A stretch of DNA of 64,000 nucleotides from an uncultured Gemmatimonadaceae bacterium (GCA_964596925.1 CAZQWQ010000072.1:576305-640304); one strand, 5' to 3'; shown: positions 20,875 to 35,745, counted from the stretch's first letter. The notes: generated from the sequence alone by a model not told the origin. Translations and numbers: made by a program.

Positions 20875-21314
20875 ACAGCGCTCCCCCGACGGCTGTCCAG
20901 GAAGTGCTGCAGCAGCAGCGTAGCCGCGAGCGCGTCGACATCCCCTTCGCGTCCCCGTGTTTTTCCGCCCATCTCGTGCACCGCCTGCCGCACCCGCGCC
21001 GTGGTGAACCGCTCGTCCCACAGGTCTACGGGCCGACTCGAGCGGCGTTGGATCGCCTCGGCCAGGTCGCGCGCAGCCCGCGCGGAGGGGCCTTCCGCGC
21101 CCGACGCGTCCAGCGGCAGCCCTACGACGATGCCGACGACCTTGTGGGCTTCAATGTGCGCGAGCAGGGGGGTCATCGGGAAGCGCTTGCCACTGCGGCG
21201 GGTGAGGGTGGCGAGCGGCTGGGCGATGGTCTGTGTCTCATCGGAGAGGGCGAGACCGATCCGGCGCTCGCCCCAGTCCACCCCGAGGAGCCGTCCGGGC
21301 GCTTCGGCCGTCAC
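20871..21314 (-). CDS. ruvX: Holliday-junction resolvase-like nuclease RuvX (YqgF)
   Basis: '[17 protein letters not shown]', 'IVVGLPL' and 'DERFTT' are present. GTGA overlap with the rho stop. Confidence 0.9.
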
Positions 21315-22564
21315 CCCTGGGACATGGTGGAGAAGAACTCCGTGTTCGACTTCGTGCGCTTCATCCGCTCGAGCAGGAACTCGATCGCTTCGACCGGCGG
21401 CATGTCAGCGAGGAAGTTGCGCAGCAGATAGACCTTGTTGAGCTCTTCCTTGGCGAGCAGCAGCTCTTCCTTGCGGGTGGAGGTGCGCTGCACGTCGATG
21501 GCGGGATAGACGCGCCGGTCGGCGATACGCCGGTCCAGCACCACCTCCATGTTGCCCGTGCCCTTAAACTCCTCGAAAATCACTTCGTCCATCCGCGAGC
21601 CGGTATCGATCAGGGCCGTGGCCACGATCGTGAGCGAGCCGCCGCCCTCGATGTTGCGGGCGGCGCCGAAGAACCGCTTCGGCTTCTGGAGCGCGTTCGC
21701 GTCCACGCCGCCGGAGAGGATCTTGCCGGAGTGGGGCACCACCACGTTGTGGGCGCGCCCCAGGCGCGTGATCGAGTCGAGCAGGATCACGACGTCCTTC
21801 CCGTGCTCCACCAGCCGTTTCGCCTTCTCGATCACCATATCGGCCACCTGCACGTGCCGGTCGGCCGGCTCGTCGAACGTGGAGGAGATCACTTCCGCCC
21901 CCTTCACGTTTTCCTCCATGTCCGTCACTTCTTCGGGCCGCTCGTCGATCAGCAGCACGATGAGATAGATGTCGGGGTGGTTTTCGGTGATGGAGTTGGC
22001 GAGCTTCTGCATCAGGATGGTCTTGCCCGCTTTGGGCGGCGACACGATCAGACCGCGTTGTCCCATGCCGATGGGGCAGAGAATGTCCATCACCCGCATC
22101 GACAGGTCGCCGTCCTTACGCTCCAGCTGGATGCGCTTCTCCGGGTAGCGCGGCCGGAGATTGTCGAACGCGACGCGATGCTTGGCCTTTTCTGGCTCTT
22201 CGCCGTTGACCGTTTCGACCTTGAGCAGCGCGAGGTAGCGCTCGCCCTCTTTGGGCGGGCGCACTTGCCCCAGCACCGTATCGCCGGTCCGCAGGTCGAA
22301 GCGCTTGATCTGGCTTGGGGAGACGTAGATGTCGTCGGGGCCGTAGAGATAGTTCCAGTCGGGGCTGCGCAGGAATCCATAGCCCTCTGGAAGGATCTCC
22401 AGGACTCCCTCTCCGCGCAGCACCGTATCGGTGTCGAGCAGCGACTGCTCGATACGGAAAATGAGATCTTGCTTGCGGAGCCCCGAGTAGTTTTGAATGT
22501 TGAGGGTCTCGGCCATCGCATGCAGTTCGGCGACGGATTTTTTCTTCAGCTCAGCGATATCCAC
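21311..22564 (-). CDS. rho: transcription termination factor Rho
   Basis: N-terminus '[31 protein letters not shown]'. Walker A 'PPKAGKT'. '[10 protein letters not shown]', '[13 protein letters not shown]' and '[25 protein letters not shown]' are present. Confidence 0.95.
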
Positions 22565-22685
22565 GTGTGTAGAGACTCCATTGGGCTACGGCGGGCGGCA
22601 AACCCTGTGGCAGGGGGCGTGAACGCGTTGATCGATGGAAGCTTAGGGATCGTACCGGTGTGCAGCGGCTATCATACGGGTTCTC

Positions 22686-23819
22686 GTGCCTTCTAGTCAA
22701 GATCGTACCATCCCGGTCGATTTGACCCCCTACGTGATCGCGTGGCGGACGACGGTCCTGCACGATCGGGAAGTCGTTGATGCGCTTATACATCCAGCAC
22801 ATGCCGGGCCCTCCACGTCCCTCGCGCAGGTGTTGCAGCGGTGGGAAGGGACGTACTACTGGTCCGACGAGCCTGGCGGCCGCTGGCTGGTTTTGACCCG
22901 CCGGCGCGCGGTGGCTGCGGAGCGTTGGTGGCTCCACGCCCTCTTGTTCGCGCTCACGCTCGCTACCACCACTCTGGGCGGCGCGGTGCTCAATGGAAAC
23001 GTCATCGTGGACGGCAGCTTTGGGCTGCTCACGGGGCGGGTCACGGTCGTCGGAGGGGTGGTGCCCGCGATCACGGCGGGGCTGCCCTTCGCGGTGCCGT
23101 TGCTCGCCATCCTGTTGGCGCACGAGATGGGGCACTATTTCACCGCGCGCCGCTACCAGCTCGACGTCTCGCCGCCCTACTTCATCCCAGTGCCGCTGTT
23201 CCCATCGTTCATCGGCACGATGGGCGCGTTTATCCGTCTGCGTACGGTGCTCTCCGATCGACGGCAGTTGTTCGACGTCGGTCTAGCCGGGCCAATCGCC
23301 GGGTTCGTCGTGGCCGTGCCGGTGCTGCTCTTCGGCCTGGTCCTGTCGGAGCCGCTTTCGGCGCATGAGGGCGTGCGGGGAATGGTGCTGTCGGTCCAGG
23401 GCGAGGGCTTTCTTCTCGGGGACTCCCTGGTCACGCTCGCGCTCCGCTGGCTGGTGCACGGGGGCGCCGCCGTGTCGCTCCATCCGGTCGCCTTCGCCGG
23501 CACGCTCGGGATGTTCGTGACGATGATCAACCTGATGCCGATGGCCCAGCTCGACGGCGGGCACATCCTGTACGCGGCCCGGCCGCGGCTGCACCGCCGC
23601 GCCGCGCTCGCCTTCTGGCTGGTTGTCCTGGGGCTGGGGCACTGGTGGATCGGCTGGTACCTGTGGGCGGGTCTGGTCCTCGTGCTGTCGCGCGGGCGGC
23701 TCGATCACCCACCGCTGTTGGACGCCTACCGTCCGTTCCCAGCCTCCCGCCGTTGGTTGCTCTGGGTAGCGGCCGTGCTGTTCCTGCTGACCTTTGCGCC
23801 GGCGCCGTTTGAAACGTGA
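22686..23819 (+). CDS. site-2 protease family (peptidase M50) membrane metalloprotease
   Basis: 'HEMGHY' (HExxH) and 'NLMPMAQLDGGH' (NxxPxxxLDG) are present, with multiple TM helices. Confidence 0.85.
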   Translation: MPSSQDRTIPVDLTPYVIAWRTTVLHDREVVDALIHPAHAGPSTSLAQVLQRWEGTYYWSDEPGGRWLVLTRRRAVAAERWWLHALLFALTLATTTLGGAVLNGNVIVDGSFGLLTGRVTVVGGVVPAITAGLPFAVPLLAILLAHEMGHYFTARRYQLDVSPPYFIPVPLFPSFIGTMGAFIRLRTVLSDRRQLFDVGLAGPIAGFVVAVPVLLFGLVLSEPLSAHEGVRGMVLSVQGEGFLLGDSLVTLALRWLVHGGAAVSLHPVAFAGTLGMFVTMINLMPMAQLDGGHILYAARPRLHRRAALAFWLVVLGLGHWWIGWYLWAGLVLVLSRGRLDHPPLLDAYRPFPASRRWLLWVAAVLFLLTFAPAPFET

Positions 23820-23882
23820 GGGTAGTATTGCGTAAGTCGCCGAAATCCATATCTTTGCGCAAACCAGCCCGATCGGCTAGGC

Positions 23883-24167
23883 ATGACAGCCCAAACGGCA
23901 CGAACCCTAGTACCGGCCGTACGCGAATCCGTCGTCCACGATCTTCCCCCCATACGGTTTGAAGGACAAAGTGTCGTCGTTCGCCTCACGGTACGACGCG
24001 CCGAGGATGGTGTGTGGCGCGGCCGGATCCTGTTTGGGGCGGAGGAGACCGAACACGAGCGGACCACGGCCGAGATCTTCTGCGCCGTCTCGGAACAGGA
24101 CCTGTGGTTGTCGGTCCGGGACCTGCGGGACCATCACCTCCGCGATCTGTACCGCTCGCTGCTCTAG
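23883..24167 (+). CDS. hypothetical 94-aa protein
   Basis: ATG start and balanced, non-shadow-like composition ('RFEGQSVVVRLTVRRAEDGVWRGRILFGAEETEHERTTAEIFCAVSEQDLW'). I recognise no family. Confidence 0.5.
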   Translation: MTAQTARTLVPAVRESVVHDLPPIRFEGQSVVVRLTVRRAEDGVWRGRILFGAEETEHERTTAEIFCAVSEQDLWLSVRDLRDHHLRDLYRSLL

Positions 24168-24258
24168 TATGCCCGAGGTCTCCGACCGGCTGTGAGCCGG
24201 CGGCACCGCTTGCGGTTTTGCCATCCATCACGGTGGTGGTTGCGCCTCCGGCGGACGA

Positions 24259-26070
24259 TTACGATCGAGCCGTGGTGTTGGCCGCGGCGTGCCCACTAAG
24301 CAGATAGAGCACCAGCAGCACCGCCGAGGCGCCGCTGACGGCAAATTTCAGGACCGCCGGGGCATCACTCGTGGAGAGCAGCCCTTCGATCGCCCCGGCA
24401 ATGGCCAGCAGGAACACCACGGCGCCGACCATGCGCATCGCAATGCGACCGTCCACGACGAGAGCGTCCAGGCGAGTGCGGTCGCCAGGGGCGATCAGGG
24501 CGTGCGCGAGCCGAAACCCCGCGCCCCCGGAGATGAAAATGGCCGTCAGCTCCAGCACGCCATGCGCGGCCACGAACGTGGCGAGGTAGCCAGCCGCGTG
24601 ATAGTTGGCGAACACGCCGAACCCAGTCCCGATGGCCAGGCCGTTGAACACCAGGGCCCACACCGTCAACACTCCCGCTAGCATACCGCCCGCGAACGCC
24701 ATGATGCACACGCGAATGTTGTTCGAGATGATCACCGCGGCGATCACGGGCCGCTCCCCGCTTTCCACCCGAGCGTAGCCCACCCCCTCCGCCTGTCGTT
24801 CCGCCGCCTGTTCCGCCCGGCTGACCATCACGGGCGACACGATCTCCTCAGCGAGCTGCGGCCGTTCCCGCAACATCACGTAGCCGATCACGGCCGGAAC
24901 CATGAACAGCAGGAACGACGCCAGCACGTAGCGCCACGATTCGACGACCGCCGCCGGGAAGTCGTGCAACAGATGGTGGGAGAACGGTGCGCGGCGTGTC
25001 GCACGCGCCTGGTACAGCGCGTTGTGCCCCGCCCCCACGAGGCGCTCGAGGTACGCCACCACCTGCGGGTCGACGCCGTAGGTGCGCGCCCGGGCGAGGT
25101 CCGCCGCGACTTCGCGGTAGCGTGCGGCGAACCCGGGGATCTCGGCGGCGGGAAGCCGGGCGAGCCCGCCTTTCTCGAGCTGCTGCGCGGCGGCGCGGAA
25201 CGCTTCCCAGGCGTCCCGTTTGCGGGCCAGGAACCGCTCACCGGTGACAGTCGTGCGCCCGGCAGAGCCCGTGGCCCGGGTCGCAAAGCGGCCGCGACGC
25301 TTTTGCTGCTCGTCGGCGAACACTGTGGTGAGGTACGCATCGGCGTCCGCGTCTCGTCTGGGGATGCGCGGCTCGAATCGGTGTGACAGCTCGGTGGTGA
25401 GCCGGTTGCGCACCGCCGGGGCGAGCTCGTGGGCCCGCGCGAGGAAACGGTCGAGCAGCTGGAACTCCTGGTCGGTGAGTTCGGGAGGGCCAAGCTCGAG
25501 CGCCTCGGTCGGCATCGGGGGCGGTGCGGGTGCCAAGCTCCAGGCGGCGACCCGATCGCGTACGACAATCGTCCCGGCCGCGAGATCACCGAGCCGCTTG
25601 TTGGCGGGGTGCAGGAACACCAACAGGCTCCCGGGGAGCGGTCCCAACGGCACTAGGAAATCGATGATGCGGATGAGATTCCGCACGGTCGCCGCGTTCG
25701 CCGTGACGGACCGTCCCGTGTCGAGCACCACGCGGATCCCGAGCGCGCGCTTCCCCGGCGTCCGGCCGTCCCCCAGCGCCTCGAACAGCGCGTAGTAAAG
25801 GAAGAAACCCAGCCCCAGGACGAGGACGACGATGGCCGTGCCCCAGCTGCCCAGGGCGGACGACCATGCTGCCCCGACACGAGCCACGGCGAAGAACAGC
25901 GCCATTCCCGTGTAGACGCAGAACAAGATCAGGAGATCGATCGCCGCGGCCGCGGCGCGCGTGCCGAGTCCGGCGAGCTCGAACGACAGCACTACGTGCT
26001 CGGGAGTCTCGACACCGTGCTGCTGGCGCAGGTCGAAGGCGTGGCGTGGGACTCGCGCGGGGGCGCTCAC
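24259..26070 (-). CDS. fusion membrane protein: N-terminal RDD domain plus C-terminal SpoIIM/DUF95-like domain
   Basis: RDD motifs 'RAAAAAIDLLILF' and 'GRTPGKRALGIRVV'. The C-terminal 'IISNNIRVCIMAFAGGMLAGVLTVWALVFNGLAIG' is typical of the stage II sporulation protein M family. Confidence 0.8.
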   Translation of the reverse strand: MSAPARVPRHAFDLRQQHGVETPEHVVLSFELAGLGTRAAAAAIDLLILFCVYTGMALFFAVARVGAAWSSALGSWGTAIVVLVLGLGFFLYYALFEALGDGRTPGKRALGIRVVLDTGRSVTANAATVRNLIRIIDFLVPLGPLPGSLLVFLHPANKRLGDLAAGTIVVRDRVAAWSLAPAPPPMPTEALELGPPELTDQEFQLLDRFLARAHELAPAVRNRLTTELSHRFEPRIPRRDADADAYLTTVFADEQQKRRGRFATRATGSAGRTTVTGERFLARKRDAWEAFRAAAQQLEKGGLARLPAAEIPGFAARYREVAADLARARTYGVDPQVVAYLERLVGAGHNALYQARATRRAPFSHHLLHDFPAAVVESWRYVLASFLLFMVPAVIGYVMLRERPQLAEEIVSPVMVSRAEQAAERQAEGVGYARVESGERPVIAAVIISNNIRVCIMAFAGGMLAGVLTVWALVFNGLAIGTGFGVFANYHAAGYLATFVAAHGVLELTAIFISGGAGFRLAHALIAPGDRTRLDALVVDGRIAMRMVGAVVFLLAIAGAIEGLLSTSDAPAVLKFAVSGASAVLLVLYLLSGHAAANTTARS

Positions 26071-26111
26071 GTCCTCATCTTATCGCCACCCCCCGCTCAT
26101 GAGCGAGGCCT

Positions 26112-26999
26112 ATGGCGGATTTGCGGCCGATGGAATTCGGGGAAATCCTGGACGGCGCGTTGTCGCTGTTCCGGCGCCACTTCCGGCTGTTTCTCAAGCT
26201 GAGCCTGACGGTGATGTGGCTCCCGATCGCCATCTTGCTCTACTGGCGCATTCGATTCATCGGCCTGCAGGGCACCCCCGAACAGGCGGCCGCCCTGCTC
26301 ATGGCGGATATCGTCCCGTTCGTGCTGTGGATCTTGATGTTTGCCGTCGTCTACGGGTTTGGGGTGTTGCTGCTCACCGCCGGATCGATCCGCATCATCT
26401 CCGATTCCTACCTCGGTCGCGAACCCAAGTTCGCGGACGCCCTCGCGTTCGGTTTCAGCAAGATCGTCCCCCTGTTTCTCGTAGGCGTCGGGAAATCGCT
26501 GCTCCTGATGCTGGTGCTCATCCTGGGTGCGGTGGTGATTGGCGTCAGTGCGGCCTTGGGCAAGGTCCTGGGTGTCGGCATCGCGATCCTCATCACCCTG
26601 GCGGCGTTTGCCGGCACTTGCTGGCTCGTGCTGTTCGTCGCGAGCGGCTACATGGTGACGACGCCGGTCGTCGTGCTCGAATCGCTGCCGTCCGCGTTCG
26701 ACTCGTTCGCCCGGTCCTGGGAGCTCACCCGCGCGGCCAAGCGCAAAGTGTTCGGCCTCGTGTTCGTCGGCTACCTGCTCGCCAGCCTGCTGCCGTCGAT
26801 CGTCCTGTCGGTCGTGGGCGAGCTGGTGAAGGAAGTCGTTCCCGCCGGCCTGCTGCCTTGGACGGTCGTCTCGGCGGCGGTGCCGATCCTGCTGGCGCCC
26901 ATGATCCCTTGCATCCTCACCCTCGCCTATTACGACCTCCGGGTACGGAGAGAGGGCTTCGACCTCCAACTGCTGGGCGAGCAGCTGGGGATCTCGTGA
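26112..26999 (+). CDS. polytopic membrane protein (about 6 TM; resembles GDPD-membrane-domain/DUF975-like proteins)
   Basis: ATG start. Long hydrophobic helices ('LSLTVMWLPIAILLYW', 'IVPFVLWILMFAVVYGFGVLLL' and others). The antisense 552-aa ORF is Arg/His/Pro nonsense. Confidence 0.7.
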   Translation: MADLRPMEFGEILDGALSLFRRHFRLFLKLSLTVMWLPIAILLYWRIRFIGLQGTPEQAAALLMADIVPFVLWILMFAVVYGFGVLLLTAGSIRIISDSYLGREPKFADALAFGFSKIVPLFLVGVGKSLLLMLVLILGAVVIGVSAALGKVLGVGIAILITLAAFAGTCWLVLFVASGYMVTTPVVVLESLPSAFDSFARSWELTRAAKRKVFGLVFVGYLLASLLPSIVLSVVGELVKEVVPAGLLPWTVVSAAVPILLAPMIPCILTLAYYDLRVRREGFDLQLLGEQLGIS

Positions 27000-27053
27000 G
27001 CGCGGTGCCCGAGCCGCTCCGGGCGTGATGGTTGCCTGCCGGAGTGGTGCAGC

Positions 27054-27683
27054 GTGATTTCCGTGCTGCTGCAGCAGGCCGTGCCATCCGATTCGTTGCG
27101 TCGCGCCGTCGAGGAGGTGTTCGCCCGGCCTGAGTACGGCTGGGCGCCAGGCGGCCAGCCGCTGCACCTCCTGCGCGACCTCTGGTCCCGGTTGGTGGAG
27201 TGGCTGAATCGGTTCGGCGCGGAGCATCCCCTCGGCTTCCGGTTGCTGTTTTGGGGGGCGGTCCTGCTGCTCGTGGCGTTGCTCGTGCACCTCGGGTGGC
27301 TCGGGTGGCGCATCTACCGATCCACCGTCGAGCGTCCGCCCGTGTCGGCACCGGGCGCTCCGTTGCTGGTCGATGCGCGGGGCCACCTGCAGCATGCCGA
27401 GGCGCTGGCCCGCGCCGGACGGTACACCGAGGCATTGGCGCATCGCTTCCTGGCGTTGCTGCTCGAGCTGGATCGCGCCGACGCCGTGACTTTCCATCCG
27501 TCGAAGACGCCCGCCGAATACGTGAACGAAGCGCGTCTCGGTGCAACCGGCCGCGACTCGCTCGCCGGGCTCGTGGCGCGACTGTACCACCACGTCTTCG
27601 GGGCAGAGCCGTGCGACGAGCGGTGCTACCGCGACTTCGGCGCGACGGCCGGGACTGTGCTGCAGCATGTCGCACCGCACTGA
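27054..27683 (+). CDS. DUF4129-like protein
   Basis: N-terminal TM 'FRLLFWGAVLLLVALLVHLGWL'. The C-terminal 'AEALARAGRYTEALAHRFLALLLELDR...FHPSKTPAEY' pattern is typical of DUF4129, which co-occurs with MoxR/DUF58. Confidence 0.7.
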   Translation: MISVLLQQAVPSDSLRRAVEEVFARPEYGWAPGGQPLHLLRDLWSRLVEWLNRFGAEHPLGFRLLFWGAVLLLVALLVHLGWLGWRIYRSTVERPPVSAPGAPLLVDARGHLQHAEALARAGRYTEALAHRFLALLLELDRADAVTFHPSKTPAEYVNEARLGATGRDSLAGLVARLYHHVFGAEPCDERCYRDFGATAGTVLQHVAPH

Positions 27684-28944
27684 GCTGGGCCTCGCGCTAT
27701 TGCTTGCCCTCGCGCTCACGGTGGCGCTGCTCGCGGGCCGGCGCCACCAGCGCACAGCCGAGGCGGAGGAGCCGGTTTCGACGTACTACAGCGGTCCGAC
27801 GGGCGGTCGCGGTCCCTACGACGTGCTGGCCCGCCTCGGCGTGCCGGTGGAGCGGCGTCGCACGACCCTGTTCGACCTGGGGCGGCAAGTTCGACGACAG
27901 CCCGCCGTACTGGTGGTCGTTGCTCCGTCGCGCTGGTTGGCCCCAGCCGAGCGCGAGGCCGTGGCCCAGTACATCGCTGGGGGAGGCGCCCTCGTGGCCG
28001 TGGGCGATGCAGGCGGAATGACCCAATGCCTGGGGTGGGACACGGCCACGCCGGACTCGGCCGATCTCGCTCGGCAGGACAGCGTGGCCGTGACGGCACC
28101 GGCGGGACTCGCCCGGCTGCCAGGGGTCAGCTGGGTACTGCAGTCCATTGAGCAGGACACCCTGGAAGGGGTCACCAAGCGCGCCGCGGAGCTGCGCAAG
28201 CTGGGGCGTGCCGGCGGCCTGATACGCGAGGACGGCGAGTGCGAATCAACGGTCCACGTGGCGACCGATACGCTGCTCGCGACGGTGCAGGGTGAGCCGG
28301 TGGTGGTCCGGTTGCGATACCGGGGCGGCGGTCGCGCGTTGTTGGTTTCCGAGGACGACTATTTCCGCAACCGCGCCTGGCGGGACACCGATGTACCCGG
28401 GCTGCTGGTGCCACTCATCGTGCCGGAGACGCGCGGCCGGGTGAGCTGGGACGAGTATCACCATGGCCATGGCGCGGAGGGTTCGCTCACGCGTGCGGCG
28501 CTGGCGTGGATGGCGCGCTCGCCCGTCGGGTGGGTGCTATGGCAGCTCGTGGCGGTCGCGCTCGTCTGGCTCGTGGTGACGGCGGTACGCTTCGGCCCGC
28601 CGCGACCGGTGATCGACCGCCGGCGCCGCTCGCCGCTCGAGCATCTCGAAGCCCTGGCCGCGGGACTCGAAGGCGCAGCGGGGGTGGAGACCGCCGTCGC
28701 GCTCACGGTGTCCGGCCTGCGGCGCCGCCTGTCGCGCACCGGCCAGCTGCCGCGTGGCGACGCCCGGCAATGGCTTGGCGCGCTCGAGCTGGCCCTACCC
28801 GGCGCGCGCGGCCGTCGCGCCGCGCGCCGCTTGCAGGATATGCTGACCAAACCCGGCGGGTCCGAGCGCGTGCTCGGGGTCGCCCAAGCCGTGGAGGACG
28901 TGTGGGAGGAATTGCGTCCGCGGGCGAAGCCCGCCGCATCGTAG
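27667..28944 (+). CDS. DUF4350-like protein
   Basis: The internal ATG (residue 43 of the track ORF) gives the signal/TM 'MSHRTELGLALLLALALTVALLAG'. 'YYSGPTGGRGPYDVLARLGVPVE' and a C-terminal TM are present. It overlaps the DUF4129 stop by 17 nt. Confidence 0.7.
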   Translation: MSHRTELGLALLLALALTVALLAGRRHQRTAEAEEPVSTYYSGPTGGRGPYDVLARLGVPVERRRTTLFDLGRQVRRQPAVLVVVAPSRWLAPAEREAVAQYIAGGGALVAVGDAGGMTQCLGWDTATPDSADLARQDSVAVTAPAGLARLPGVSWVLQSIEQDTLEGVTKRAAELRKLGRAGGLIREDGECESTVHVATDTLLATVQGEPVVVRLRYRGGGRALLVSEDDYFRNRAWRDTDVPGLLVPLIVPETRGRVSWDEYHHGHGAEGSLTRAALAWMARSPVGWVLWQLVAVALVWLVVTAVRFGPPRPVIDRRRRSPLEHLEALAAGLEGAAGVETAVALTVSGLRRRLSRTGQLPRGDARQWLGALELALPGARGRRAARRLQDMLTKPGGSERVLGVAQAVEDVWEELRPRAKPAAS

Positions 28945-29858
28945 ACGCCCTGAACCGGGTGGTGCTTGGCCAGGAGGCCGCGACTCGGGAGGTGCTCGTC
29001 GCCCTGCTGGCCCGCGGCCACGTCCTGCTCGAGGGCGTGCCGGGGACCGCCAAGACCCTGCTCGTCCGCACACTGGCGCTGGCGCTCGACGTCCGGTTCC
29101 AGCGCATCCAGTTCACCCCCGACCTCATGCCCGCGGACATCACCGGCGTCTCGATGCTCGCTGCGTCGCACGACTTCACCTTCCGGCCCGGGCCGATCTT
29201 CGCGGACCTGGTGCTGGCAGACGAGATCAACCGGGCCCCCGCCAAGACGCAAGCCGCGCTGCTCGAGGCGATGCAGGAGCGCACGGTCACGGTGGACGGC
29301 GTGAGTCATCCCCTGTCCGACGTGTTCACGGTCTTCGCGACCCAGAACCCGATCGAGTTCGAGGGCACCTACCCCCTGCCCGAGGCGGAGCTGGACCGCT
29401 TCATGATGAAGGTGCTGTTCGGCTACCCCGCCGCCGCACTGGAGCAAGGGATCCTGACTCGGTACGTCGAGGGCTTCGAAGCGGACCGGCCGGCCACCTA
29501 CGGGGTGTCCAAGGTGACGGACGGAGCGGGACTCTCTGCCCTCCGGGGGGCGGTGGAGGGCGTGCGAGTCGAGACGCAGATCACCGCCTACATCACGGCC
29601 ATCGTGCGCGCCACGCGCGATGCCGCCTCCCTCACCCTCGGCGCCAGCCCGCGGGCCGGCGTGTCGCTGCTCAAGGCGGCGCGGGCCTCGGCGCTACTCG
29701 ATGGACGCGACTACGTCATTCCCGATGATGTCAAAGCCCTCGCCCCGGCGGTGCTGCGCCACCGCGTGAACGTCGCCCCCGAGCTCGAGCTCGAAGGCGT
29801 CAGCGCCGACGTGGCCTTGAAGGCGATCCTCGACAAGACCGAGGTGCCCACCGCGTGA
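28902..29858 (+). CDS. MoxR-family AAA+ ATPase
   Basis: GTG at residue 133 of the track ORF. 'VVLGQEAATREVLVALLARGHVLLEGVPGTAKT' (Walker A), 'LADEINRAPAKTQAALLEAMQE' (Walker B/sensor) and 'FTVFATQNPIEFEGTYPLPEAELDRF' are present. Confidence 0.9.
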   Translation: MGGIASAGEARRIVDALNRVVLGQEAATREVLVALLARGHVLLEGVPGTAKTLLVRTLALALDVRFQRIQFTPDLMPADITGVSMLAASHDFTFRPGPIFADLVLADEINRAPAKTQAALLEAMQERTVTVDGVSHPLSDVFTVFATQNPIEFEGTYPLPEAELDRFMMKVLFGYPAAALEQGILTRYVEGFEADRPATYGVSKVTDGAGLSALRGAVEGVRVETQITAYITAIVRATRDAASLTLGASPRAGVSLLKAARASALLDGRDYVIPDDVKALAPAVLRHRVNVAPELELEGVSADVALKAILDKTEVPTA

Positions 29859-31177
29859 TCCTCCCGACGCGGCGCTTCCTGTGGATCGCGGCCGCGCTGG
29901 CGGGTCTCGGCCTCCTCGGCGTCTGGGTCGAGTGGGCGCTCGACGTGATGCTGCTGGCGGATGCGGGGCTCCTGGCCCTGGTCCTGGCGGACGCGGTGCG
30001 CGCACCGGCGGTCGGCGCCGCCGCCGCGGTGCAGCCGGAGCGCGACGCGCCGCCCGCGTTTTCGATGGGCCACGCCGTCGAGGTCACCTACATCTGGCGA
30101 AACTCGTCGCGCCACGCGGCGCGCCTGCGGGTGCGGGAGGTGCGCCCCGAGCTATTGGGTGGTCTCCAGCGTCCTCGCGCGCTCGTCGTACCCCCGGGCG
30201 GCGAATGGCGCGAGCGGCTGGCCGTGGGACCGGTGCGGCGCGGCTACGAAACCGGCGGTGCGCTGACGGTGGACACCATCGGGCCGCTCGGGTTGGGGTT
30301 GCGCCGGTCGACGCATGCCTTGCCGTGGGAGGTGCGCGTGTATCCCGCACTCACCACGCTGCGGCGTCGCGCCGCGGTGGCCCAGGCGCTGCGACGCCGC
30401 GAACAGGGACGCCAACCGCTGCGCCGACTCGGCGAGGGACGGCTGTTCGAGTCGCTGCGCGACTTCGTGCCAGGCGACGATCCGCGCCACATCGATTGGA
30501 AGGCGACGGCGCGGCGCCGCAAGGTGATCACGCGGCAGTTCGAGGCCGAACGGCGCCAGCACGTGTTGCTGGTTCTCGATGCCGGGCGCCTGCTCACCGC
30601 CGACGTCGCGGGCACGGCGCGGATGGACTACGTGGTGCAGGCGGCGCTGGAGCTCGCCTACGCGGCCGCACAGCACGATGACAACGTCGGCGTGATGGTG
30701 TTTGCCGACGGCGTGCGGCATTTCGTGGCGCCGCAGCGCGGGCGTCGCGGTCTGAAGCAGGTGCTCGACGTGCTGTCGGAGGTGACCCCGACCCTCGTCG
30801 AGCCCGATTACCCCGGTGCGTTTCGCTATCTCGCGGCGCGCAACCGCAAGCGCGCGCTCACGGTGGTGTTCACCGATGTGATTGACCGGTTTGCGTCGGA
30901 GGCGCTGGTCGCGAACCTCGTCACGCTACGGCCGCGGCACCTCCCGCTCGCCGTGACGCTGCGCAACCCGGAGCTCGACGCGATCGCTACGCAGCGGCCC
31001 GCCGAGGTGCGGGACGCGTGGCGCAAAGCGGCGGCGGAAGAGCTGCTGCGGGCGCGCGAGGAGGCGCTGTCGCACATGCGCCGCGCGGGCGTGCTGGTGC
31101 TGGACGTGCCGCCGGCCCGTGCGGCCGAGGCCGTCGTGGATACGTACGTGGAACTCAAACGGCGTGGGCGATTGTGA
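29855..31177 (+). CDS. DUF58 protein (vWA-like partner of MoxR)
   Basis: GTGA overlap with the MoxR stop. Two N-terminal TM helices. 'LRDFVPGDDPRHIDWKATARRRKVITRQFE' is the DUF58 signature. A vWA-like 'VLLVLDAGRLL' is present. Confidence 0.85.
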   Translation: MILPTRRFLWIAAALAGLGLLGVWVEWALDVMLLADAGLLALVLADAVRAPAVGAAAAVQPERDAPPAFSMGHAVEVTYIWRNSSRHAARLRVREVRPELLGGLQRPRALVVPPGGEWRERLAVGPVRRGYETGGALTVDTIGPLGLGLRRSTHALPWEVRVYPALTTLRRRAAVAQALRRREQGRQPLRRLGEGRLFESLRDFVPGDDPRHIDWKATARRRKVITRQFEAERRQHVLLVLDAGRLLTADVAGTARMDYVVQAALELAYAAAQHDDNVGVMVFADGVRHFVAPQRGRRGLKQVLDVLSEVTPTLVEPDYPGAFRYLAARNRKRALTVVFTDVIDRFASEALVANLVTLRPRHLPLAVTLRNPELDAIATQRPAEVRDAWRKAAAEELLRAREEALSHMRRAGVLVLDVPPARAAEAVVDTYVELKRRGRL

Positions 31178-31241
31178 TCTAAGCTGGCGAGGAAACCCGT
31201 TGGCTTCTATGTTGCTAGACCACCTGCTGACGGGAATGGTC

Positions 31242-32996
31242 ATGCGTTTCTACGCCCGATGGATCACCGCCGGCGCCGTTCTGGCGGCGGCCGTCGTCGC
31301 CTGTTCCGTGCCCACCGACAAGACCCAGGACATCCAGGTCGTCGTCCGGCTCTCGGATTCTCTGCAATCGCGAGGGATCCTGGGGCAGGGACTGCGCGAC
31401 TCGGTGCATGCGTTTGCCTTCCGGCTCGGCGCGTCAGGGGAAACACTCGCGGTGACCAACAGCGGGTTTCAGTGGACGTCGAGCGATCCGACGATCGCGA
31501 CCGTGGAGGGCCTGCCGACCGGTTGGGCGATCGTGACCGGGCTGGCGCCGGGGTCGGTCGCCTTTACAGCGCGACCGATCGCCTACGAGGACGCGCCGAG
31601 TGGTGCGCTGAGCGTCCGGGTGGCGACCCGGTTCGTGATCGACAGCGTACGACCCAGTCTCGTCCACTACGGCGACAAGGTGACGGTGTATGGCGTCGGG
31701 GTGAACCAGCTGTTCTCCCTCACGCTGGGCGCTGACCTGTTCCCCGATTTCTTCTCGTTCCAGGGCAACCCGGACGGTCTCAGCTCGGAGCAGTGGTGGG
31801 TGCCCTATCCGACGTCGAGCGGGTTGCCGTTCTTCATCGGCCCCGGTGTATTTGGCTTCGACACTGTCCCGGTCGCAGTGGTGGACAGCGATCTGTTCGA
31901 GCCCGACTCGGCCGCGCCGGCGCCGGTGATCGCCACCGGGGCAGGGGGGCCGCGCACGTTCGCCGGTCTCCCGGCGCTGTATTTCAACCCGGCGCTGTAT
32001 TTCGAGCCGGTGGATTTCACCCTGCCGCGCATCAACCTGCCGGTTGACTGGCTCCGCTTCGCCATCTCGGACTCGACGCAGCCGATTTCGTTCGTGGTGA
32101 CGTCCACCGTCTTCAGTGATACCGTCGCGGCGTTCACCTATATCGGGGACTCCGTCGAATACAACACGTGCCCCGGCCTCTACTGCGTCGGCCCGACGTC
32201 GAAGATCATCTTTCCGGGCACGCAGTGGATCTGCAACGGGAATTTCTTCGGCTCGAACGGCATTCGGCTGCCGCAGGTAACGGTGGCCTTCAAGAACTCG
32301 ATCTCCTTGAATCCGCAATTCATTTCGTTCTACTCGACTCCGGGCCGCTACGAGGTGGCCGTCGTGCGCGGGTACCTATCCCGCCTGCCACCCGATCGCT
32401 TTGAGGAGAACGACTTGTGGTGCGTCGATGTGGACAGCGCCTTCACTCAGTCGCCGGATTCCAACCCGAACTCACGCACCGCGAAACACATCGTGATCGG
32501 CCGCTCGGCGTTCGGCCAGAACGGCTTCTGGTTCGACTCGACGTTGACCATCGACAACCCAGGGGACGCGGACTTCATCCGCTTCCGTGTGCAACCGCCG
32601 GCGTTCGTGGGCGATACGTTCGTCACGATCCAAATCAAGGCGCGCCCGTTCGGGGTAATCGATCCGTCCGACATCGATCTCTACGTGATGCGGGTGAGCG
32701 ATTTCGCGTTCATGACCGCTTCGGTGAATGTGGGCTCGGACGATTCCGTGACGCTGAACCTGCCGCCGGATGACTATTATCTCGCCGTCGTGGATTTTGC
32801 GCAGCAACAGACCCGGTATGCGGTCTGCATCGTCAAGGGCTTCGGGTGTATCCCCCCCGGCGCGCCGCCGCGCCTGACGCGCGCTCCAGCGGTGAACCGG
32901 CTCCCACGCCGGGACCCCCACCGGGATCCACGCGTGCCGCCTGCGAACCTGCCGTTCCATATGCCGTTGGGGAGGGCTCCATCGCCGCCCCGGTGA
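31242..32996 (+). CDS. lipoprotein with a Big_2 Ig-like domain and a pre-peptidase C-terminal (PPC)-like domain
   Basis: 'MRFYARWITAGAVLAAAVVAC' is a lipobox. 'FQWTSSDPTIATVEGLPTGWAIVTGLAPGSVAFTARP' is Big_2. 'GDADFIRFRV...DIDLYVM...DDYYLAVVDF' is PPC-like. Alternative ATG starts are at 31209 and 31236. Confidence 0.7.
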   Translation: MRFYARWITAGAVLAAAVVACSVPTDKTQDIQVVVRLSDSLQSRGILGQGLRDSVHAFAFRLGASGETLAVTNSGFQWTSSDPTIATVEGLPTGWAIVTGLAPGSVAFTARPIAYEDAPSGALSVRVATRFVIDSVRPSLVHYGDKVTVYGVGVNQLFSLTLGADLFPDFFSFQGNPDGLSSEQWWVPYPTSSGLPFFIGPGVFGFDTVPVAVVDSDLFEPDSAAPAPVIATGAGGPRTFAGLPALYFNPALYFEPVDFTLPRINLPVDWLRFAISDSTQPISFVVTSTVFSDTVAAFTYIGDSVEYNTCPGLYCVGPTSKIIFPGTQWICNGNFFGSNGIRLPQVTVAFKNSISLNPQFISFYSTPGRYEVAVVRGYLSRLPPDRFEENDLWCVDVDSAFTQSPDSNPNSRTAKHIVIGRSAFGQNGFWFDSTLTIDNPGDADFIRFRVQPPAFVGDTFVTIQIKARPFGVIDPSDIDLYVMRVSDFAFMTASVNVGSDDSVTLNLPPDDYYLAVVDFAQQQTRYAVCIVKGFGCIPPGAPPRLTRAPAVNRLPRRDPHRDPRVPPANLPFHMPLGRAPSPPR

Positions 32997-34696
32997 CGCA
33001 GTGCGTCAAATGTCAGGCATCGTTGCCCGATAACAGCCGGTTCTGCTTCGCCTGCGGAGCCGACCAGACGGGTGGCGGGGGCGAGGCCGGCTCCGCGAGC
33101 GTGATCGAGAACCTCCAGAACCGGCTGCAGCGCCTCGTGCAAGGCAAGTACCAGATCAAGCGGCTGCTCGGCAAGGGCGGCATGGGCGCGGTGTTCCTGG
33201 CCGACGACCTCACGCTCGATCGGGAGGTGGCGATCAAGGTCCTGCCGCCCGACTTCTCGAGCGACCCCCAGGTGATCAAACGGTTTCAGCAGGAAGCGAA
33301 GACGGCGGCCAAGCTCGACCACGTGAATATCATCCCGATCTACCGGGTCGAGAGCGATGAAGGCCTCAACTACTTCGTCATGAAGTTCATCTCCGGCACG
33401 TCGCTCGAGGACTTACTGGATTCGAAACAGGAAATCTCCTACGACTACGCCCAGCGGATCCTGTGGGAGGCCGCCTGCGCGCTGGGTCACGCGCATTCGC
33501 GCGGGGTGGTGCATCGCGACGTGAAGCCGGCCAACATCATGTTCGACCACGACGGCAAGGTGATGCTCACCGACTTCGGCATCGGCAAGCTGCTCCAGTC
33601 GGCGACCGGGCTCACCGGCACGGGGATGATTATCGGTACGCCGCACTACATGGCTCCGGAGCAGGCCAAAGGCCAGCCGGTGGACGGACGCGCCGACCAG
33701 TATTCCCTGGGCGTCGTGGGCTATCGCCTGCTCTCGGGCTCGCTGCCGTTCAGCGGCGACTCGGTGCACACCATCCTCTACAAACACATCTTCGAGGAGG
33801 CCCCGCGGCTCTCGGGGCTACGGCAGAACGCGCCCAAATTCCTGACCGATCCGATCCAGCGCGCGTTGTCCAAGGAGCCTGCGCAGCGCTTCCCTACCAT
33901 GGAAGACTTCGCGTCGGCGCTCTGGCCGGAGCAACCGGTGTCGGCCACGGGGAAGGCGACGCCGAAACCCGCCCGCCAGGCTCCCGGCGCGCGCGGCCCG
34001 GTCACCGCCGACACACCGACCGAGCACGTCCGCGACGCCTCCGGCGCCTCCGCGCCTACCACGCCGTTGCCGTCGGCGGTGCGGCCACGCACCGCTCCGC
34101 ACCACGAGACGCGTCCCGCGAAGAAGTCCTCGTCCAAGGTGGGAGTGTTCGCCCTGGTCGCCGTCGCGGCCGTCGGTGCGGGGGGGTACGTCGTCATGCG
34201 TGGCGGTGGTGGCGGAGGGTCGCCGCAGAACGCCGCCGCGATCGAACCATCGCCGGTGCCCGCGCCGCCCGCCGGCCAGCAGAGCGTGGCCGTCACGCCG
34301 GAATCGACCGCGACGCCGCCTGCCGTGACGCCGTCCGTCACGCCAACTCCAGCGCCGATCGAACCCGCGGCTCCGCCCCGACAGACGACCCGGCCACCAC
34401 AGCAGCGGCCGACGCCCTCGCGGCCGCGGCAGCAACAGCCGGTGGAACAACCACCGCCCGTGCAGCAGCCGGCGGTGGAGGAATGGGGATACCTGTCGAT
34501 CAACGCCAACCCGTTCGGTACCGTCTTCATCGACGGCGTGAATGTGGGCGACACCCCAATCGACCGGCACCGCGTGAGGCCCGGCCCGCACACGATTCGC
34601 ATCGAGAACCCAGGCTACAAGACGCTCACCGAACGCGTGCAGATCGATCCCGGCAACACGATCCGTAAGACCTACCCACTGGTTCCGGAGGGATGA
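32993..34696 (+). CDS. Hanks-type Ser/Thr protein kinase with an N-terminal zinc ribbon, one TM helix and a C-terminal PEGA domain
   Basis: GTG in a GTGA overlap with the upstream stop. 'CVKC...FCFACG' is a zinc ribbon. Kinase motifs 'GKGGMGAV', 'VAIKVL', 'HRDVKPANIM', 'DFGI' and 'GTPHYMAPE' are present. TM 'VGVFALVAVAAVGAGGYVVM'. The PEGA region is 'GYLSINANPFGTVFIDGVNVGDTP...HTIRIENPGYKT'. Confidence 0.85.
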   Translation: MTQCVKCQASLPDNSRFCFACGADQTGGGGEAGSASVIENLQNRLQRLVQGKYQIKRLLGKGGMGAVFLADDLTLDREVAIKVLPPDFSSDPQVIKRFQQEAKTAAKLDHVNIIPIYRVESDEGLNYFVMKFISGTSLEDLLDSKQEISYDYAQRILWEAACALGHAHSRGVVHRDVKPANIMFDHDGKVMLTDFGIGKLLQSATGLTGTGMIIGTPHYMAPEQAKGQPVDGRADQYSLGVVGYRLLSGSLPFSGDSVHTILYKHIFEEAPRLSGLRQNAPKFLTDPIQRALSKEPAQRFPTMEDFASALWPEQPVSATGKATPKPARQAPGARGPVTADTPTEHVRDASGASAPTTPLPSAVRPRTAPHHETRPAKKSSSKVGVFALVAVAAVGAGGYVVMRGGGGGGSPQNAAAIEPSPVPAPPAGQQSVAVTPESTATPPAVTPSVTPTPAPIEPAAPPRQTTRPPQQRPTPSRPRQQQPVEQPPPVQQPAVEEWGYLSINANPFGTVFIDGVNVGDTPIDRHRVRPGPHTIRIENPGYKTLTERVQIDPGNTIRKTYPLVPEG

Positions 34697-35745
34697 GGCC
34701 GATGCGCCGCATACAATTCGCGCTGGTCGCGCTGGTCGTGTCGTTCGGGCCCGTGGCGCTCTCCGCGCAGCAGGCCGTCCAGAGCGCCATGCTGCAGCGG
34801 GCGATTCGAGCGTACGAGGTGCCGGATTTCCAACAGGTGATCATCCTGGCGCGGACGGCGCTCCGAGAGCGACTGTCCGCCGCCGAGCGTGCGCGGGCCT
34901 ACGAGCTGCTGGGGTTCGCGTTCAGCGCGACCAGCCAGCCCGATTCCGCGATTTCGGCCTTCCGCGATGCGATTCAGCTCGACCCCGACCGCCAGCTCGA
35001 TCCGCGTCGTACGTCGCCCCGCATCGCCGGGTACTTCAACGCGGCGCTCGGTCAGGTGCTGGTCGTACGGCAGCTCAAGGTGGACACCACGCGATTCGTC
35101 ACCGGCACCCAGGGCGGCGGGGTCCCGATCCGTTTCACCGTCACCGTTCCAGCGCGCGTACGCACCCGGGCGGTAAGCGGCCAACACACCCTGCTGATCG
35201 ACTCGAGCATCGTGGCCGGGACGCTCAACCTCCGCTGGACTGGCCTCCTCGCGAACGGGGATCCGGTCCCGCCCGGAAGGTGGACGATCCTCGTCGAGGC
35301 CACTGGGGCCGGGCAGAATACCCACTCGGCCTCGCAAGAGGTGCAGGTCACCGTGGGCGCGGTGGACACCTTGCCGCACTTGAGCGCGCTGCCCGGCTAC
35401 ACCACGCTCCCCGAGACCGAGATCCCACCCCAGAGCGGCCGGCCGCTGGGGATCGCGCTGCTTTACACCGGTATCGCCGGCGCCGGCGCCCTGGCGCTCA
35501 ACAACGGCGACCTTGGCACTGCCACTGGGCGCGAGATAGGCGTCGTCGCGGCCGCCGCGCTGATCACGGGATTCGTCATGACGTTGAAGAAGCCGGCGCC
35601 GCGTCCGGCGTTGGGCAACATCCAGTACAACCGCCTGCTGCAGGAGCAGCTGGCCCGGCGCAACACCGACATCGCGCAACAGAACGCCCAGCTGCGCCGC
35701 CAGGTGCAGATCACCGTCGTGCCGGTTGCCAGGGGGACCCGATGA
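34693..35745 (+). CDS. secreted/membrane protein with an N-terminal TPR-like region, an Ig-like (FlgD-Ig-type) middle and two C-terminal TM helices
   Basis: ATGA overlap with the kinase stop. Signal 'FALVALVVSFGPVALSAQ'. 'AYELLGFAFSATSQPDSAISAFRDAIQLDP' is TPR-like. TM segments are 'LGIALLYTGIAGAGALAL' and 'GVVAAAALITGFVM'. Confidence 0.65.
   Translation: MRPMRRIQFALVALVVSFGPVALSAQQAVQSAMLQRAIRAYEVPDFQQVIILARTALRERLSAAERARAYELLGFAFSATSQPDSAISAFRDAIQLDPDRQLDPRRTSPRIAGYFNAALGQVLVVRQLKVDTTRFVTGTQGGGVPIRFTVTVPARVRTRAVSGQHTLLIDSSIVAGTLNLRWTGLLANGDPVPPGRWTILVEATGAGQNTHSASQEVQVTVGAVDTLPHLSALPGYTTLPETEIPPQSGRPLGIALLYTGIAGAGALALNNGDLGTATGREIGVVAAAALITGFVMTLKKPAPRPALGNIQYNRLLQEQLARRNTDIAQQNAQLRRQVQITVVPVARGTR

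Follow-up and report, generated by a model that had tools for sequence, protein, structure and literature searches.

A MoxR membrane gene cluster of Gemmatimonadales in which two of the membrane proteins are fused

Pairs of MoxR ATPases and vWA proteins are known as remodelling modules, and a membrane system combining DUF4350, MoxR and vWA proteins has been predicted (PMC5898192). Seven families (DUF7847-like, DUF4129, DUF4350, MoxR, DUF58, SpoIIM-like, and RDD) make up the mycobacterial Rv3689-Rv3695 set, in which MoxR2 is Rv3692, and its equivalents in Mycobacterium chelonae, M. abscessus, and Nocardia. In a published M. chelonae table, the membrane protein, DUF4350, MoxR, DUF58, SpoIIM, and RDD genes are all co-regulated (PMC8191103); pull-down of the divisome-associated Rv0954 recovered both Rv3694c and Rv3695, in a coimmunoprecipitation list that includes numerous membrane proteins and is possibly unspecific (PMC8093794). 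A second type links MoxR and DUF58 to a membrane protein ending in DUF4129, as in the yeaC-yeaD-yebA genes of Bacillus subtilis and the co-transcribed PA2875-PA2874-tgpA genes of Pseudomonas aeruginosa (PMC3507681; see also PMC3495828). The archaeal neighborhood of arCOG01314 (DUF4350), with MoxR and vWA genes, was predicted by Makarova et al. in 2015 to be a secretion or membrane-remodelling system (PMC5898192), and the PFNA operon of Bifidobacterium has the order pkb2-fn3-MoxR-DUF58-tgm (PMC12067865). SpoIIM itself, a part of the B. subtilis SpoIID-SpoIIM-SpoIIP engulfment complex, is a membrane scaffold for envelope enzymes (summarized in PMC5898192). The initial annotation of the present locus held that no substrate or phenotype is established for such a module; our literature searches likewise found none, nor any experiment assigning a function to an orthologue.

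The locus described here lies in a 64,000-nucleotide stretch of DNA from an uncultured Gemmatimonadaceae bacterium (the window) and is an ordinary Gemmatimonadales version of a six-gene MoxR membrane cluster, comprising one ATP-driven MoxR motor and five membrane proteins, two original membrane proteins having been fused (Table 1). Its layout had been described from the sequence as a minus-strand RDD-SpoIIM gene separated by a 41-nt divergent gap from a packed plus-strand run of membrane protein, DUF4129, DUF4350, MoxR, and DUF58 genes, with every product except MoxR anchored in the membrane. This description stands: Pfam assigns both RDD and SpoIIM to the minus-strand gene, domain searches return the families named for the run, hydropathy finds membrane segments in all products but MoxR, and the gap and the overlaps of 17 nt (27667-27683), 43 nt (28902-28944), and GTGA (29855-29858) were verified in the sequence. 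The overlaps result from start codons that homologues also keep, the GTG start of MoxR in 38/65; across 60 related loci, the median spacings are likewise -17 and -43 nt. A search of the spacer for a sigma-70-like consensus found none.

Table 1. Features of the MoxR membrane cluster, with positions counted from the first nucleotide of the window
Feature	Position	Strand	Basis
RDD-DUF8413-SpoIIM fusion protein, 603 aa	24259..26070	-	Pfam RDD and SpoIIM; AF2; full-length single-frame relatives
SpoIIM/DUF95 domain, residues 385-566	24373..24918	-	Pfam E 4e-32; AF2
DUF8413-like cytoplasmic helical domain, about residues 277-377	24940..25242	-	AF2 helices; homologue starts
RDD domain, residues 32-166	25573..25977	-	Pfam E 9e-19; AF2 secondary structure
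Divergent intergenic spacer, 41 nt	26071..26111		Sequence
Polytopic membrane protein, 295 aa, DUF7847 (PF25231)	26112..26999	+	PF25231 of orthologues; weak homologue matches
Single-pass membrane protein with C-terminal DUF4129 domain, 209 aa	27054..27683	+	Pfam E 3e-6; hydropathy
DUF4350 protein, 425 aa	27667..28944	+	Pfam E 3e-9; AF2; Foldseek
MoxR AAA+ ATPase, 318 aa	28902..29858	+	AAA_3 E 3e-61, plus AAA_lid_2
DUF58 protein, 440 aa	29855..31177	+	Pfam DUF58 E 6e-33, plus VWA_2; hydropathy

In the AF2 model of the fusion protein (pLDDT 80, pTM 0.73), the RDD domain consists of two TM helices, a re-entrant helical hairpin (residues 124-153), and a four-stranded cytoplasmic sheet, with R38, D45, K107, R130, G161-D162, and G166-T167 kept across phyla. 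Between RDD and SpoIIM, the newer precomputed Pfam set places DUF8413 (PF28475); in unfused SpoIIM-like proteins, this region, with a commonest-residue frequency of 0.79, is ordinarily the N-terminal domain, and unfused homologues of ~330 aa start at it. The SpoIIM domain sits in a six-helix bundle spanning residues 379-602, where the polar residues N451, N476, H503, E507, and E562 are kept in Gemmatimonadota, Actinomycetota, Pseudomonadota, and Bacteroidota. Both membrane domains are modelled as N-in/C-in, and the RDD sheet and residues 200-377 lie on one side of the membrane. Of 301 genomes sampled from the phylum, 174 encode a full-length relative of the fusion in a single frame, the most divergent at 36% identity. 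Hence the fusion, at first taken as special to this locus, is the normal state in the class Gemmatimonadetes and is already annotated in hundreds of its genomes. The accompanying suggestion that RDD and SpoIIM act together is strengthened by this class-wide conservation, by the adjacent or overlapping unfused genes of other phyla, by a topology in which both domains begin and end in the cytoplasm, and by the recovery of Rv3694c and Rv3695 in the same pull-down (PMC8093794).

The remaining membrane proteins were assigned with varying ease. Pfam and NCBIfam profile searches of the 295-aa polytopic protein itself gave no match. Among its homologues, 15/28 match PF10110 weakly and 8 match DUF975, the orthologues in L116 and L117 carry PF25231, and a homologue occupies the equivalent position in Nocardia; by these sequence matches, it is a DUF7847 protein distantly related to GPDPase_memb/DUF975/UPF0259. 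The DUF4129 protein has one TM segment at about residues 62-85 by hydropathy, and its DUF4129 domain is probably cytoplasmic because the C-terminal flank of that segment is richer in K+R (2.6 versus 1.4 on the other flank in 71 homologues), a weak positive-inside signal. The DUF4350 protein is predicted to consist of a signal-anchor, a periplasmic GIFT-like alpha/beta domain, a TM segment, and a conserved Arg-rich cytoplasmic helical tail. Foldseek matches of its AF2 model (pLDDT 81) include GH42/GH164 trimerisation domains, the N-terminal domain of IFT52, ThuA-like proteins, and an OST subunit, and as modelled the outer domain is a GIFT-like, noncatalytic scaffold fold. The tail (residues 317-360) is the best-conserved part of this protein; across the module, conservation is highest in cytoplasmic segments and lowest in the periplasmic DUF4350 domain.

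An AAA_3 core with AAA_lid_2 and an adjoining, overlapping DUF58 gene place the ATPase in the MRP subfamily of MoxR. Its Walker A (GVPGTAKT), Walker B (LADE), and sensor-1 (ATQNP) motifs are intact, the Arg finger expected of the subfamily is present (LDRF), and the nearest solved structure is 2R44 (E 4e-72). The DUF58 protein is predicted to have an N-terminal TM hairpin followed by a cytoplasmic DUF58/vWA domain (Pfam, hydropathy). It lacks the canonical MIDAS (DxSxS...T...D), reading D242-A-G-R-L in place of DxSxS and keeping the final Asp (FTD). The form D-x-G-[RKH] recurs in 22/22 module DUF58 sequences from Gemmatimonadota, Actinomycetota, and Pseudomonadota, the present copy included, and three DUF58 paralogues of the same genome retain the metal-binding DxSxS; as judged from these sequences, the motif is specific to this module and spans phyla.

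All genes of the set are present at 60 of 80 related loci, which is more than chance, and 19 of the remaining 20 loci are truncated at the end of a contig. The set is complete in 60/61 informative close loci and 17/20 distant ones, and the gene order is kept beyond the source genome, the collinear run with adjoining RDD/SpoIIM being found at 77 related Gemmatimonadetes loci. The fusion gene shifts from head-to-head to tail-to-tail, with adjacency preserved. The three distant exceptions have an orthologous-looking DUF58 gene elsewhere in the genome, with 41-42% identity over the full length in two and split in the third. Identity drops stepwise with taxonomic distance across the whole class, a pattern resembling vertical inheritance, and the synteny of the module beside housekeeping genes is conserved. 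In about 42% of the genomes sampled from the phylum there is no match, and the function of the module is therefore dispensable. At the 3' side of DUF58, after 31 nt, stand a Big_2 lipoprotein gene and then a Pkinase-PEGA gene, a linkage seen at 44/46 close loci and 0/20 distant loci; the Ig-like lipoprotein gene directly 3' of DUF58 in close relatives is variable.

Beyond the phylum, the module families cluster, unfused, in Nocardia, Rhizobium, Paracoccus, and Catenovulum. The proposed recurrence in several phyla is thereby borne out for Actinomycetota (Nocardia) and for Alpha- and Gammaproteobacteria, in addition to the published table for M. chelonae and M. tuberculosis Rv3689-Rv3695. All seven Rv3689-Rv3695-type families are present here, in the collinear order and with adjoining RDD and SpoIIM-like genes, and the module is the Gemmatimonadetes version of this widespread MoxR2-type membrane module, the RDD and SpoIIM-like subunits being joined in one protein. 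The mycobacterial type has RDD and SpoIIM as separate genes and differs in their position and strand relative to the operon. Nocardia shares the order DUF7847 homologue, DUF4129, MoxR, DUF58, with RDD and SpoIIM-like genes adjoining; DUF4350 was not detected at that locus.

Other systems resemble the module in part. It has MoxR, DUF58, and DUF4129 in common with the TgpA/YebA operons, but DUF4350, DUF7847, RDD, and SpoIIM are extra, DUF58 is without DxSxS, and Pfam and domain searches find no Transglut_core in any of the six products; the only such gene of the genome lies ~135 kb past the end of the window on the same contig. Like the archaeal operon, it combines a vWA protein and a COG0714 MoxR with a DUF4350 protein that has a flavodoxin-like/GldG-like outer domain and a C-terminal TM segment. 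The archaeal sets, however, lack RDD, SpoIIM, DUF4129, and DUF7847 as fixed partners. They include membrane proteins with S-layer-like Ig domains (arCOG02884 and relatives); the conserved core here has none, a Big_2 lipoprotein occurring only in close relatives. The membrane domain is homologous to B. subtilis SpoIIM, which is without the DUF8413 and RDD parts. SpoIIP was not found in this 91.6%-complete genome, its single SpoIID-like gene is on another contig, unlinked to the module, and the source organism is not known to form spores. The lipoprotein and kinase genes recall the Ser/Thr kinase and Ig/FN3-like surface protein beside MoxR-DUF58 in the PFNA operon, yet here the linkage is lineage-specific, the gene order is different, and there is no transglutaminase. 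In Bat (Bacteroides aerotolerance)-type MoxR-DUF58-BatA-E operons, an MRP-type MoxR is followed by DUF58 and several membrane proteins, as here; Pfam finds no BatA/BatB vWA-TM or TPR BatC-like genes in the module. In circular-bacteriocin DUF95 maturation/immunity clusters, the DUF95 gene has genes for a small precursor peptide and an ABC transporter next to it, and none of these is among the ORFs or Pfam assignments of 21233-35745.

With moderate confidence, we propose that the six products form one inner-membrane complex that is switched from the cytoplasm by MoxR-DUF58 and is most likely related to the cell envelope. We favor a complex because the gene set stays together even though the fusion gene changes orientation, orthologous-looking DUF58 genes lie elsewhere in the three exceptional distant genomes, and the same families, whose Pfam assignments hold, cluster in Nocardia, Rhizobium, Paracoccus, and Catenovulum. 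The co-regulation in M. chelonae (PMC8191103) and the joint pull-down of Rv3694c and Rv3695 (PMC8093794) point the same way, as do the membrane segments of all products but MoxR, the modelled position of residues 200-377 on the same side as the RDD sheet, the high conservation of cytoplasmic parts, the DUF58 motif, the GIFT-like outer domain of DUF4350, the intact Walker motifs of a MoxR close to 2R44, and the precedents of MoxR-vWA remodelling pairs and of the predicted DUF4350-MoxR-vWA membrane system (PMC5898192). The RDD-DUF8413-SpoIIM, DUF7847, DUF4129, and DUF4350 proteins would constitute the membrane core. DUF58, tethered by its TM hairpin and with a basic residue in its vWA domain replacing the metal site, would dock a MoxR hexamer onto conserved cytoplasmic handles, namely the DUF4350 tail, DUF4129, and DUF8413 with the RDD sheet. 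ATP hydrolysis would then bring about assembly or a conformational switch of the core. The output, in the membrane or periplasm, would come through the N-N-H-E-E site buried in the SpoIIM bundle and through the scaffold domain of DUF4350 with its GIFT-like fold. The envelope target would most likely be the positioning or gating of an envelope-modifying or exporting activity; against the proposal, the core set encodes no envelope enzyme (hydrolase, transglutaminase, or transporter ATPase), about 42% of the genomes sampled are without the module, the signal behind the DUF4129 topology is weak, and the coimmunoprecipitation may be unspecific.

That the DUF4350, MoxR, vWA, and other membrane proteins instead constitute a novel secretion system exporting surface proteins seems unlikely, though the idea has a pedigree in the prediction made for DUF4350-MoxR-vWA operons of the archaeal arCOG01314 neighborhood by Makarova, Galperin and Koonin (PMC5898192). 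The likeness of the DUF4350 outer domain to GldG/GIFT domains and the variable lipoprotein gene of close relatives would suit export; however, the conserved core has no channel-forming or outer-membrane component, the archaeal S-layer-like Ig proteins are not in it, the lipoprotein/kinase operon is missing at 20/20 distant loci, and the vWA domain, behind its hairpin, is predicted to lie in the cytoplasm rather than to be secreted. For the machine of membrane-protein insertion, maturation, or quality control suggested in the initial annotation, the computed results speak neither for nor against. Zhang and Aravind proposed for the MoxR-vWA-YebA/TgpA operons, with which the module shares three families, a degradation model (PMC3495828) whose equivalent here, near to the quality-control idea of the initial annotation, would have DUF58 recruit, MoxR unfold, and a membrane component cleave. 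The conserved His/Glu/Glu/Asn/Asn cluster of the SpoIIM bundle could be catalytic. Nevertheless, domain searches find no transglutaminase, other peptidase, or insertase domain in the six products, and the one Transglut_core gene is far outside the window. Moreover, threading of substrates is not known from MoxR ATPases, and membrane-proximal degradation or quality control is in our judgment improbable.

Ion or small-solute transport is a poor prospect. On this account, the RDD and SpoIIM-like bundles would be the pathway, and MoxR-DUF58 would be no more than its chaperone in assembly or maturation, a role that NorQ/NorD or CbbQ/CbbO have for their clients. Charged and polar residues are indeed conserved in both membrane domains, and Na+(Li+,K+)/H+ antiport has been reported for an RDD protein of Halobacillus andaensis, but that lone report is based on heterologous complementation (PMC5996927). 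Further, the best-conserved RDD residues are in the cytoplasmic sheet rather than the TM helices, DUF4350, DUF4129, and DUF7847 get no role, and DUF58 lacks the MIDAS required in the metal-insertion precedents. Conflict systems built on MoxR and vWA proteins do exist (PMC7159879), and the ATPase has a secondary match to bpMoxR (PF20030, E 7.5e-9). Even so, an anti-phage or conflict role of the MoxR-vWA ternary type is very improbable: PADLOC yields only a generic AAA match (E 1e-4) and no defense system, the module has no effector domain, and the apparent vertical inheritance across the class and the synteny beside housekeeping genes argue against it.

A bolder reading, which we regard as quite unlikely, is an AAA+-driven envelope machine of a new kind. 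In it, the cross-phylum N-N-H-E-E cluster of the SpoIIM-like bundle would be an intramembrane catalytic or translocation site gated by RDD and powered by MoxR via a DUF58 adaptor, in which the fixed basic side chain of D-x-G-R would replace the MIDAS metal and clamp an acidic motif of the conserved cytoplasmic tails. If true, such a machine would parallel FtsEX-type mechanotransmission with a wholly different set of components.

The assigned identity of the module, in which an RDD-SpoIIM fusion gene diverges from a run encoding a membrane protein, DUF4129, DUF4350, MoxR, and DUF58, can be regarded as practically certain. ORF listing and Pfam scans of the window recovered every gene that the initial annotation had read from the sequence alone, and hydropathy bore out its statement that all products but MoxR carry membrane segments. 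The 17-nt, 43-nt, and GTGA overlaps that it described rest on start codons common to the homologues and are borne out too, the median junctions across 60 related loci being -17 and -43 nt. A newer precomputed Pfam set additionally places DUF8413 (PF28475) between the RDD and SpoIIM domains of the fusion protein; a specific NCBIfam model is absent for five of the six module proteins. The host genome is a MAG of an uncultured member of the Gemmatimonadales, 4.1 Mb in 92 contigs and 91.6% complete; judging by one above-threshold DUF4350 match and one DUF4129 match, it has a single copy of the module. Scans of the module found neither an inter-gene terminator nor a sigma-70-like site. The absence of the latter leaves the 41-nt spacer between the divergent start codons unexplained, and the promoters at this point must lie within coding sequence or belong to another type.

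Features of the RDD-SpoIIM/MoxR/DUF58 module, in window positions
Feature	Positions	Strand	Details
RDD-SpoIIM fusion	24259-26070	-	603 aa; RDD 32-166, SpoIIM 385-566 (Pfam)
Divergent spacer	26071-26111		41 nt
Polytopic membrane protein	26112-26999	+	295 aa
DUF4129 protein	27054-27683	+	
DUF4350 protein	27667-28944	+	
MoxR	28902-29858	+	AAA_3 E 3e-61
DUF58/VWA_2 protein	29855-31177	+	

When an alignment of the fusion protein was scanned against GTDB species genomes, 500 of them encoded a relative, and the best 80 are all Gemmatimonadota. Among these 80 close loci, 60 retain the full five-gene run in head-to-head orientation to the fusion gene; of the remainder, 19 hit a contig end and one has no detectable DUF4350. 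Even sampling of the phylum gave a match in 174 of 301 genomes. Among the matches listed, the protein is full-length and in a single frame, spans six families of the class Gemmatimonadetes, and ranges in identity from 75% in the same genus to 36% elsewhere in the class; in the sampled family outside this class, only weak RDD-level matches were found and no SpoIIM-like match. Identity thus drops stepwise as taxonomic distance grows, a pattern that resembles vertical inheritance accompanied by losses. All six genes also occur together in 17 of 20 more-diverged loci of the class, in most of which the fusion gene lies tail-to-tail behind DUF58 rather than head-to-head before the membrane protein. 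Comparison of the window with the distant loci L091-L108 assigns the head-to-head arrangement to the window's family and to three genomes of the neighboring family; elsewhere in the class, most families have the tail-to-tail position. The fusion gene has thus moved and still adjoins the operon, and an adjacency that has outlived rearrangement argues more strongly for linkage than frozen synteny does. The three distant loci that depart from this have an orthologous-looking DUF58 gene elsewhere in the genome, with 41 to 42% identity over its full length in two and split in the third.

The genes flanking the module show a different pattern. Thirty-one nucleotides past DUF58, with no predicted terminator between, lie genes for a Big_2 lipoprotein, a zinc-ribbon/Pkinase/PEGA kinase, and a TPR protein (31209-35745, plus strand), and a Peptidase_M50 gene of the site-2 protease family (22686-23819, plus strand) converges on the fusion gene. 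The former linkage is kept in 44 of 46 close loci and the latter in 46 of 58, versus none of the 20 distant loci in either case; both were therefore rejected as core parts and represent lineage-specific synteny. An adjacent ORF (21233-22696, plus strand; 487 aa) without a Pfam match is kept in 50 of 80 related loci.

Beyond most Gemmatimonadetes, the module occurs in mycobacteria, rhizobia, and marine Gammaproteobacteria. On Rhizobium and Paracoccus plasmids, the genes DUF805-DUF4129-DUF4350-MoxR-DUF58-SpoIIM-RDD all run the same way, and Catenovulum has the order RDD-SpoIIM-(515-aa protein)-DUF4350-MoxR-DUF58. In Nocardia, a homologue of the first membrane protein is followed by DUF4129, MoxR, and DUF58, with RDD and SpoIIM adjoining. 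In a published Mycobacterium chelonae table these genes appear, alongside their equivalents from Rv3689-Rv3695 (the corresponding M. tuberculosis locus), as jointly repressed (PMC8191103). A Bernardetia plasmid encodes, divergently from an RDD gene, a 617-aa SpoIIM-like protein (L088:8971-10824) whose additional C-terminal stretch of about 330 residues belongs to no known family; within 9 kb there is no MoxR module.

The first membrane protein had no match in the local Pfam; 15 of 28 homologues weakly match GPDPase_memb and 8 match DUF975, and a newer Pfam set identifies its orthologues as DUF7847 (PF25231). In the alphaproteobacterial copies this slot is filled by DUF805 membrane proteins (L086:3515-4586 in Rhizobium, L089:4212-4652 in Paracoccus). 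A second DUF7847 paralogue, 36 to 39% identical, lies just past the 3' end of the fusion gene in 14 of 80 related loci (e.g., L015:11837-12574 and L020:12058-12807, plus 12 further loci) and is absent from that position in the window.

The fusion protein was modeled with AF2 (pLDDT 80, pTM 0.73); a Foldseek search of the PDB with this model found no solved relative (best E 0.56, TM <0.3). In the model, the RDD part has two TM helices and a Pro/Gly-kinked re-entrant hairpin (124-153), with a four-stranded sheet assembled from segments preceding and following the helices. Helices 200-263 correspond to the tail of the RDD protein in unfused relatives, and a low-confidence linker (261-274) leads to the DUF8413 helices (277-377), which are followed by a SpoIIM bundle of six helices. 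Since both membrane domains are modeled as N-in/C-in, their fusion would be topologically simple. Across four phyla, the SpoIIM bundle retains N451, N476, H503, E507, and E562, and the RDD part retains R38, D45, K107, R130, G161-D162, and G166-T167.

The class-wide fusion is a natural marker of RDD and SpoIIM as one working unit. JGI records annotate the protein as a fusion, and it is spread over many 50%-identity clusters, with identity as low as 29%. A search with the C-terminal half for unfused relatives returned mostly fusion fragments from short contigs. On two metagenome contigs the protein is apparently split within the flexible linker, by an in-frame stop in one (L116:6209-7996) and by a frameshift in the other (L117:4858-6586; contig coverage 4.4x); the frameshift may be a sequencing error, and either split could be a true fission. 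A full-length fusion with 30% identity, from one of these clusters, bears the NCBI label "Gammaproteobacteria bacterium" (HEB57605.1) and is an unproven candidate for occurrence of the fusion beyond Gemmatimonadota.

The DUF4350 protein, as modeled by AF2 (pLDDT 81), comprises a signal-anchor, an alpha/beta outer domain, one TM helix, and a helical tail. Foldseek matches the outer domain to GH42/GH164 trimerization domains, ThuA-like proteins, an OST subunit, and the IFT52 GIFT domain (TM-score 0.55 to 0.58 on the target), in agreement with the link to GldG drawn by Makarova et al. using HHpred (PMC5898192). The idea that its cytoplasmic tail is a hidden DUF4129 domain was rejected (hhalign probability 0.1%). 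In MoxR, whose nearest solved structure is 2R44, the Walker A/B, sensor 1, and Arg-finger motifs are all intact. Given its N-terminal TM hairpin, the DUF58 protein is predicted to face MoxR in the cytoplasm with its vWA domain; phmmer found no match for it among PDB sequences. At the MIDAS position, where vWA domains normally have the metal-binding DxSxS, it has D-A-G-R-L (residues 242-246; 30578-30592). A comparison of 22 module DUF58 sequences from three phyla found the form D-x-G-[R/K/H] in every one, including those of Nocardia, Rhizobium, Paracoccus, Catenovulum, and 17 distant Gemmatimonadetes, whereas the three other DUF58 paralogues of the host genome retain DxSxS.

Conservation across the module is highest in its cytoplasmic parts and lowest in the periplasmic DUF4350 domain and RDD TM1-2: the DUF4350 tail (317-360) scores 0.82 against 0.57 for the periplasmic domain, and the RDD sheet 0.85 to 0.88 against 0.54 for TM1-2. 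The reading that we favor, put forward tentatively as falling short of probable, is that the six products form a single ATP-switched inner-membrane complex with envelope-directed output, in which MoxR and DUF58 would act from the cytoplasmic side on conserved cytoplasmic handles. Both Rv3694c and Rv3695 are present in the pull-down of the divisome-associated Rv0954 (PMC8093794).

The literature searched yielded no phenotype or substrate for the module, and several other readings compete with such a complex. Among published ideas, a cell-wall role has been proposed for the essential TgpA (PMC3507681). The module might be a secretion system, and secretion or membrane remodeling has been proposed for DUF4350-MoxR-vWA systems (PMC5898192); it might instead serve proteolysis or quality control, a membrane-proximal degradation system having been proposed for MoxR-vWA-YebA (PMC3495828). 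A transport unit with its maturation chaperone is a further alternative, and Na+/H+ antiport has been reported for one RDD protein (PMC5996927). A defense system has also been considered, but PADLOC lends this no support.

The module as initially annotated is real, correctly described, and ordinary, and the window's copy alone brings no new biology. What is new here is the divergent/convergent switch, the assignment of the first gene to DUF7847, the metal-less motif of DUF58, the polar residues conserved as a cluster within the SpoIIM bundle, and the modeled folds. The metal-less motif, the five SpoIIM polar residues, and the conserved DUF4350 tail offer residues to mutate in tractable hosts. 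The module is among the more widespread bacterial gene clusters without a known role, and a single functional solution would carry over to the annotation of thousands of genomes.
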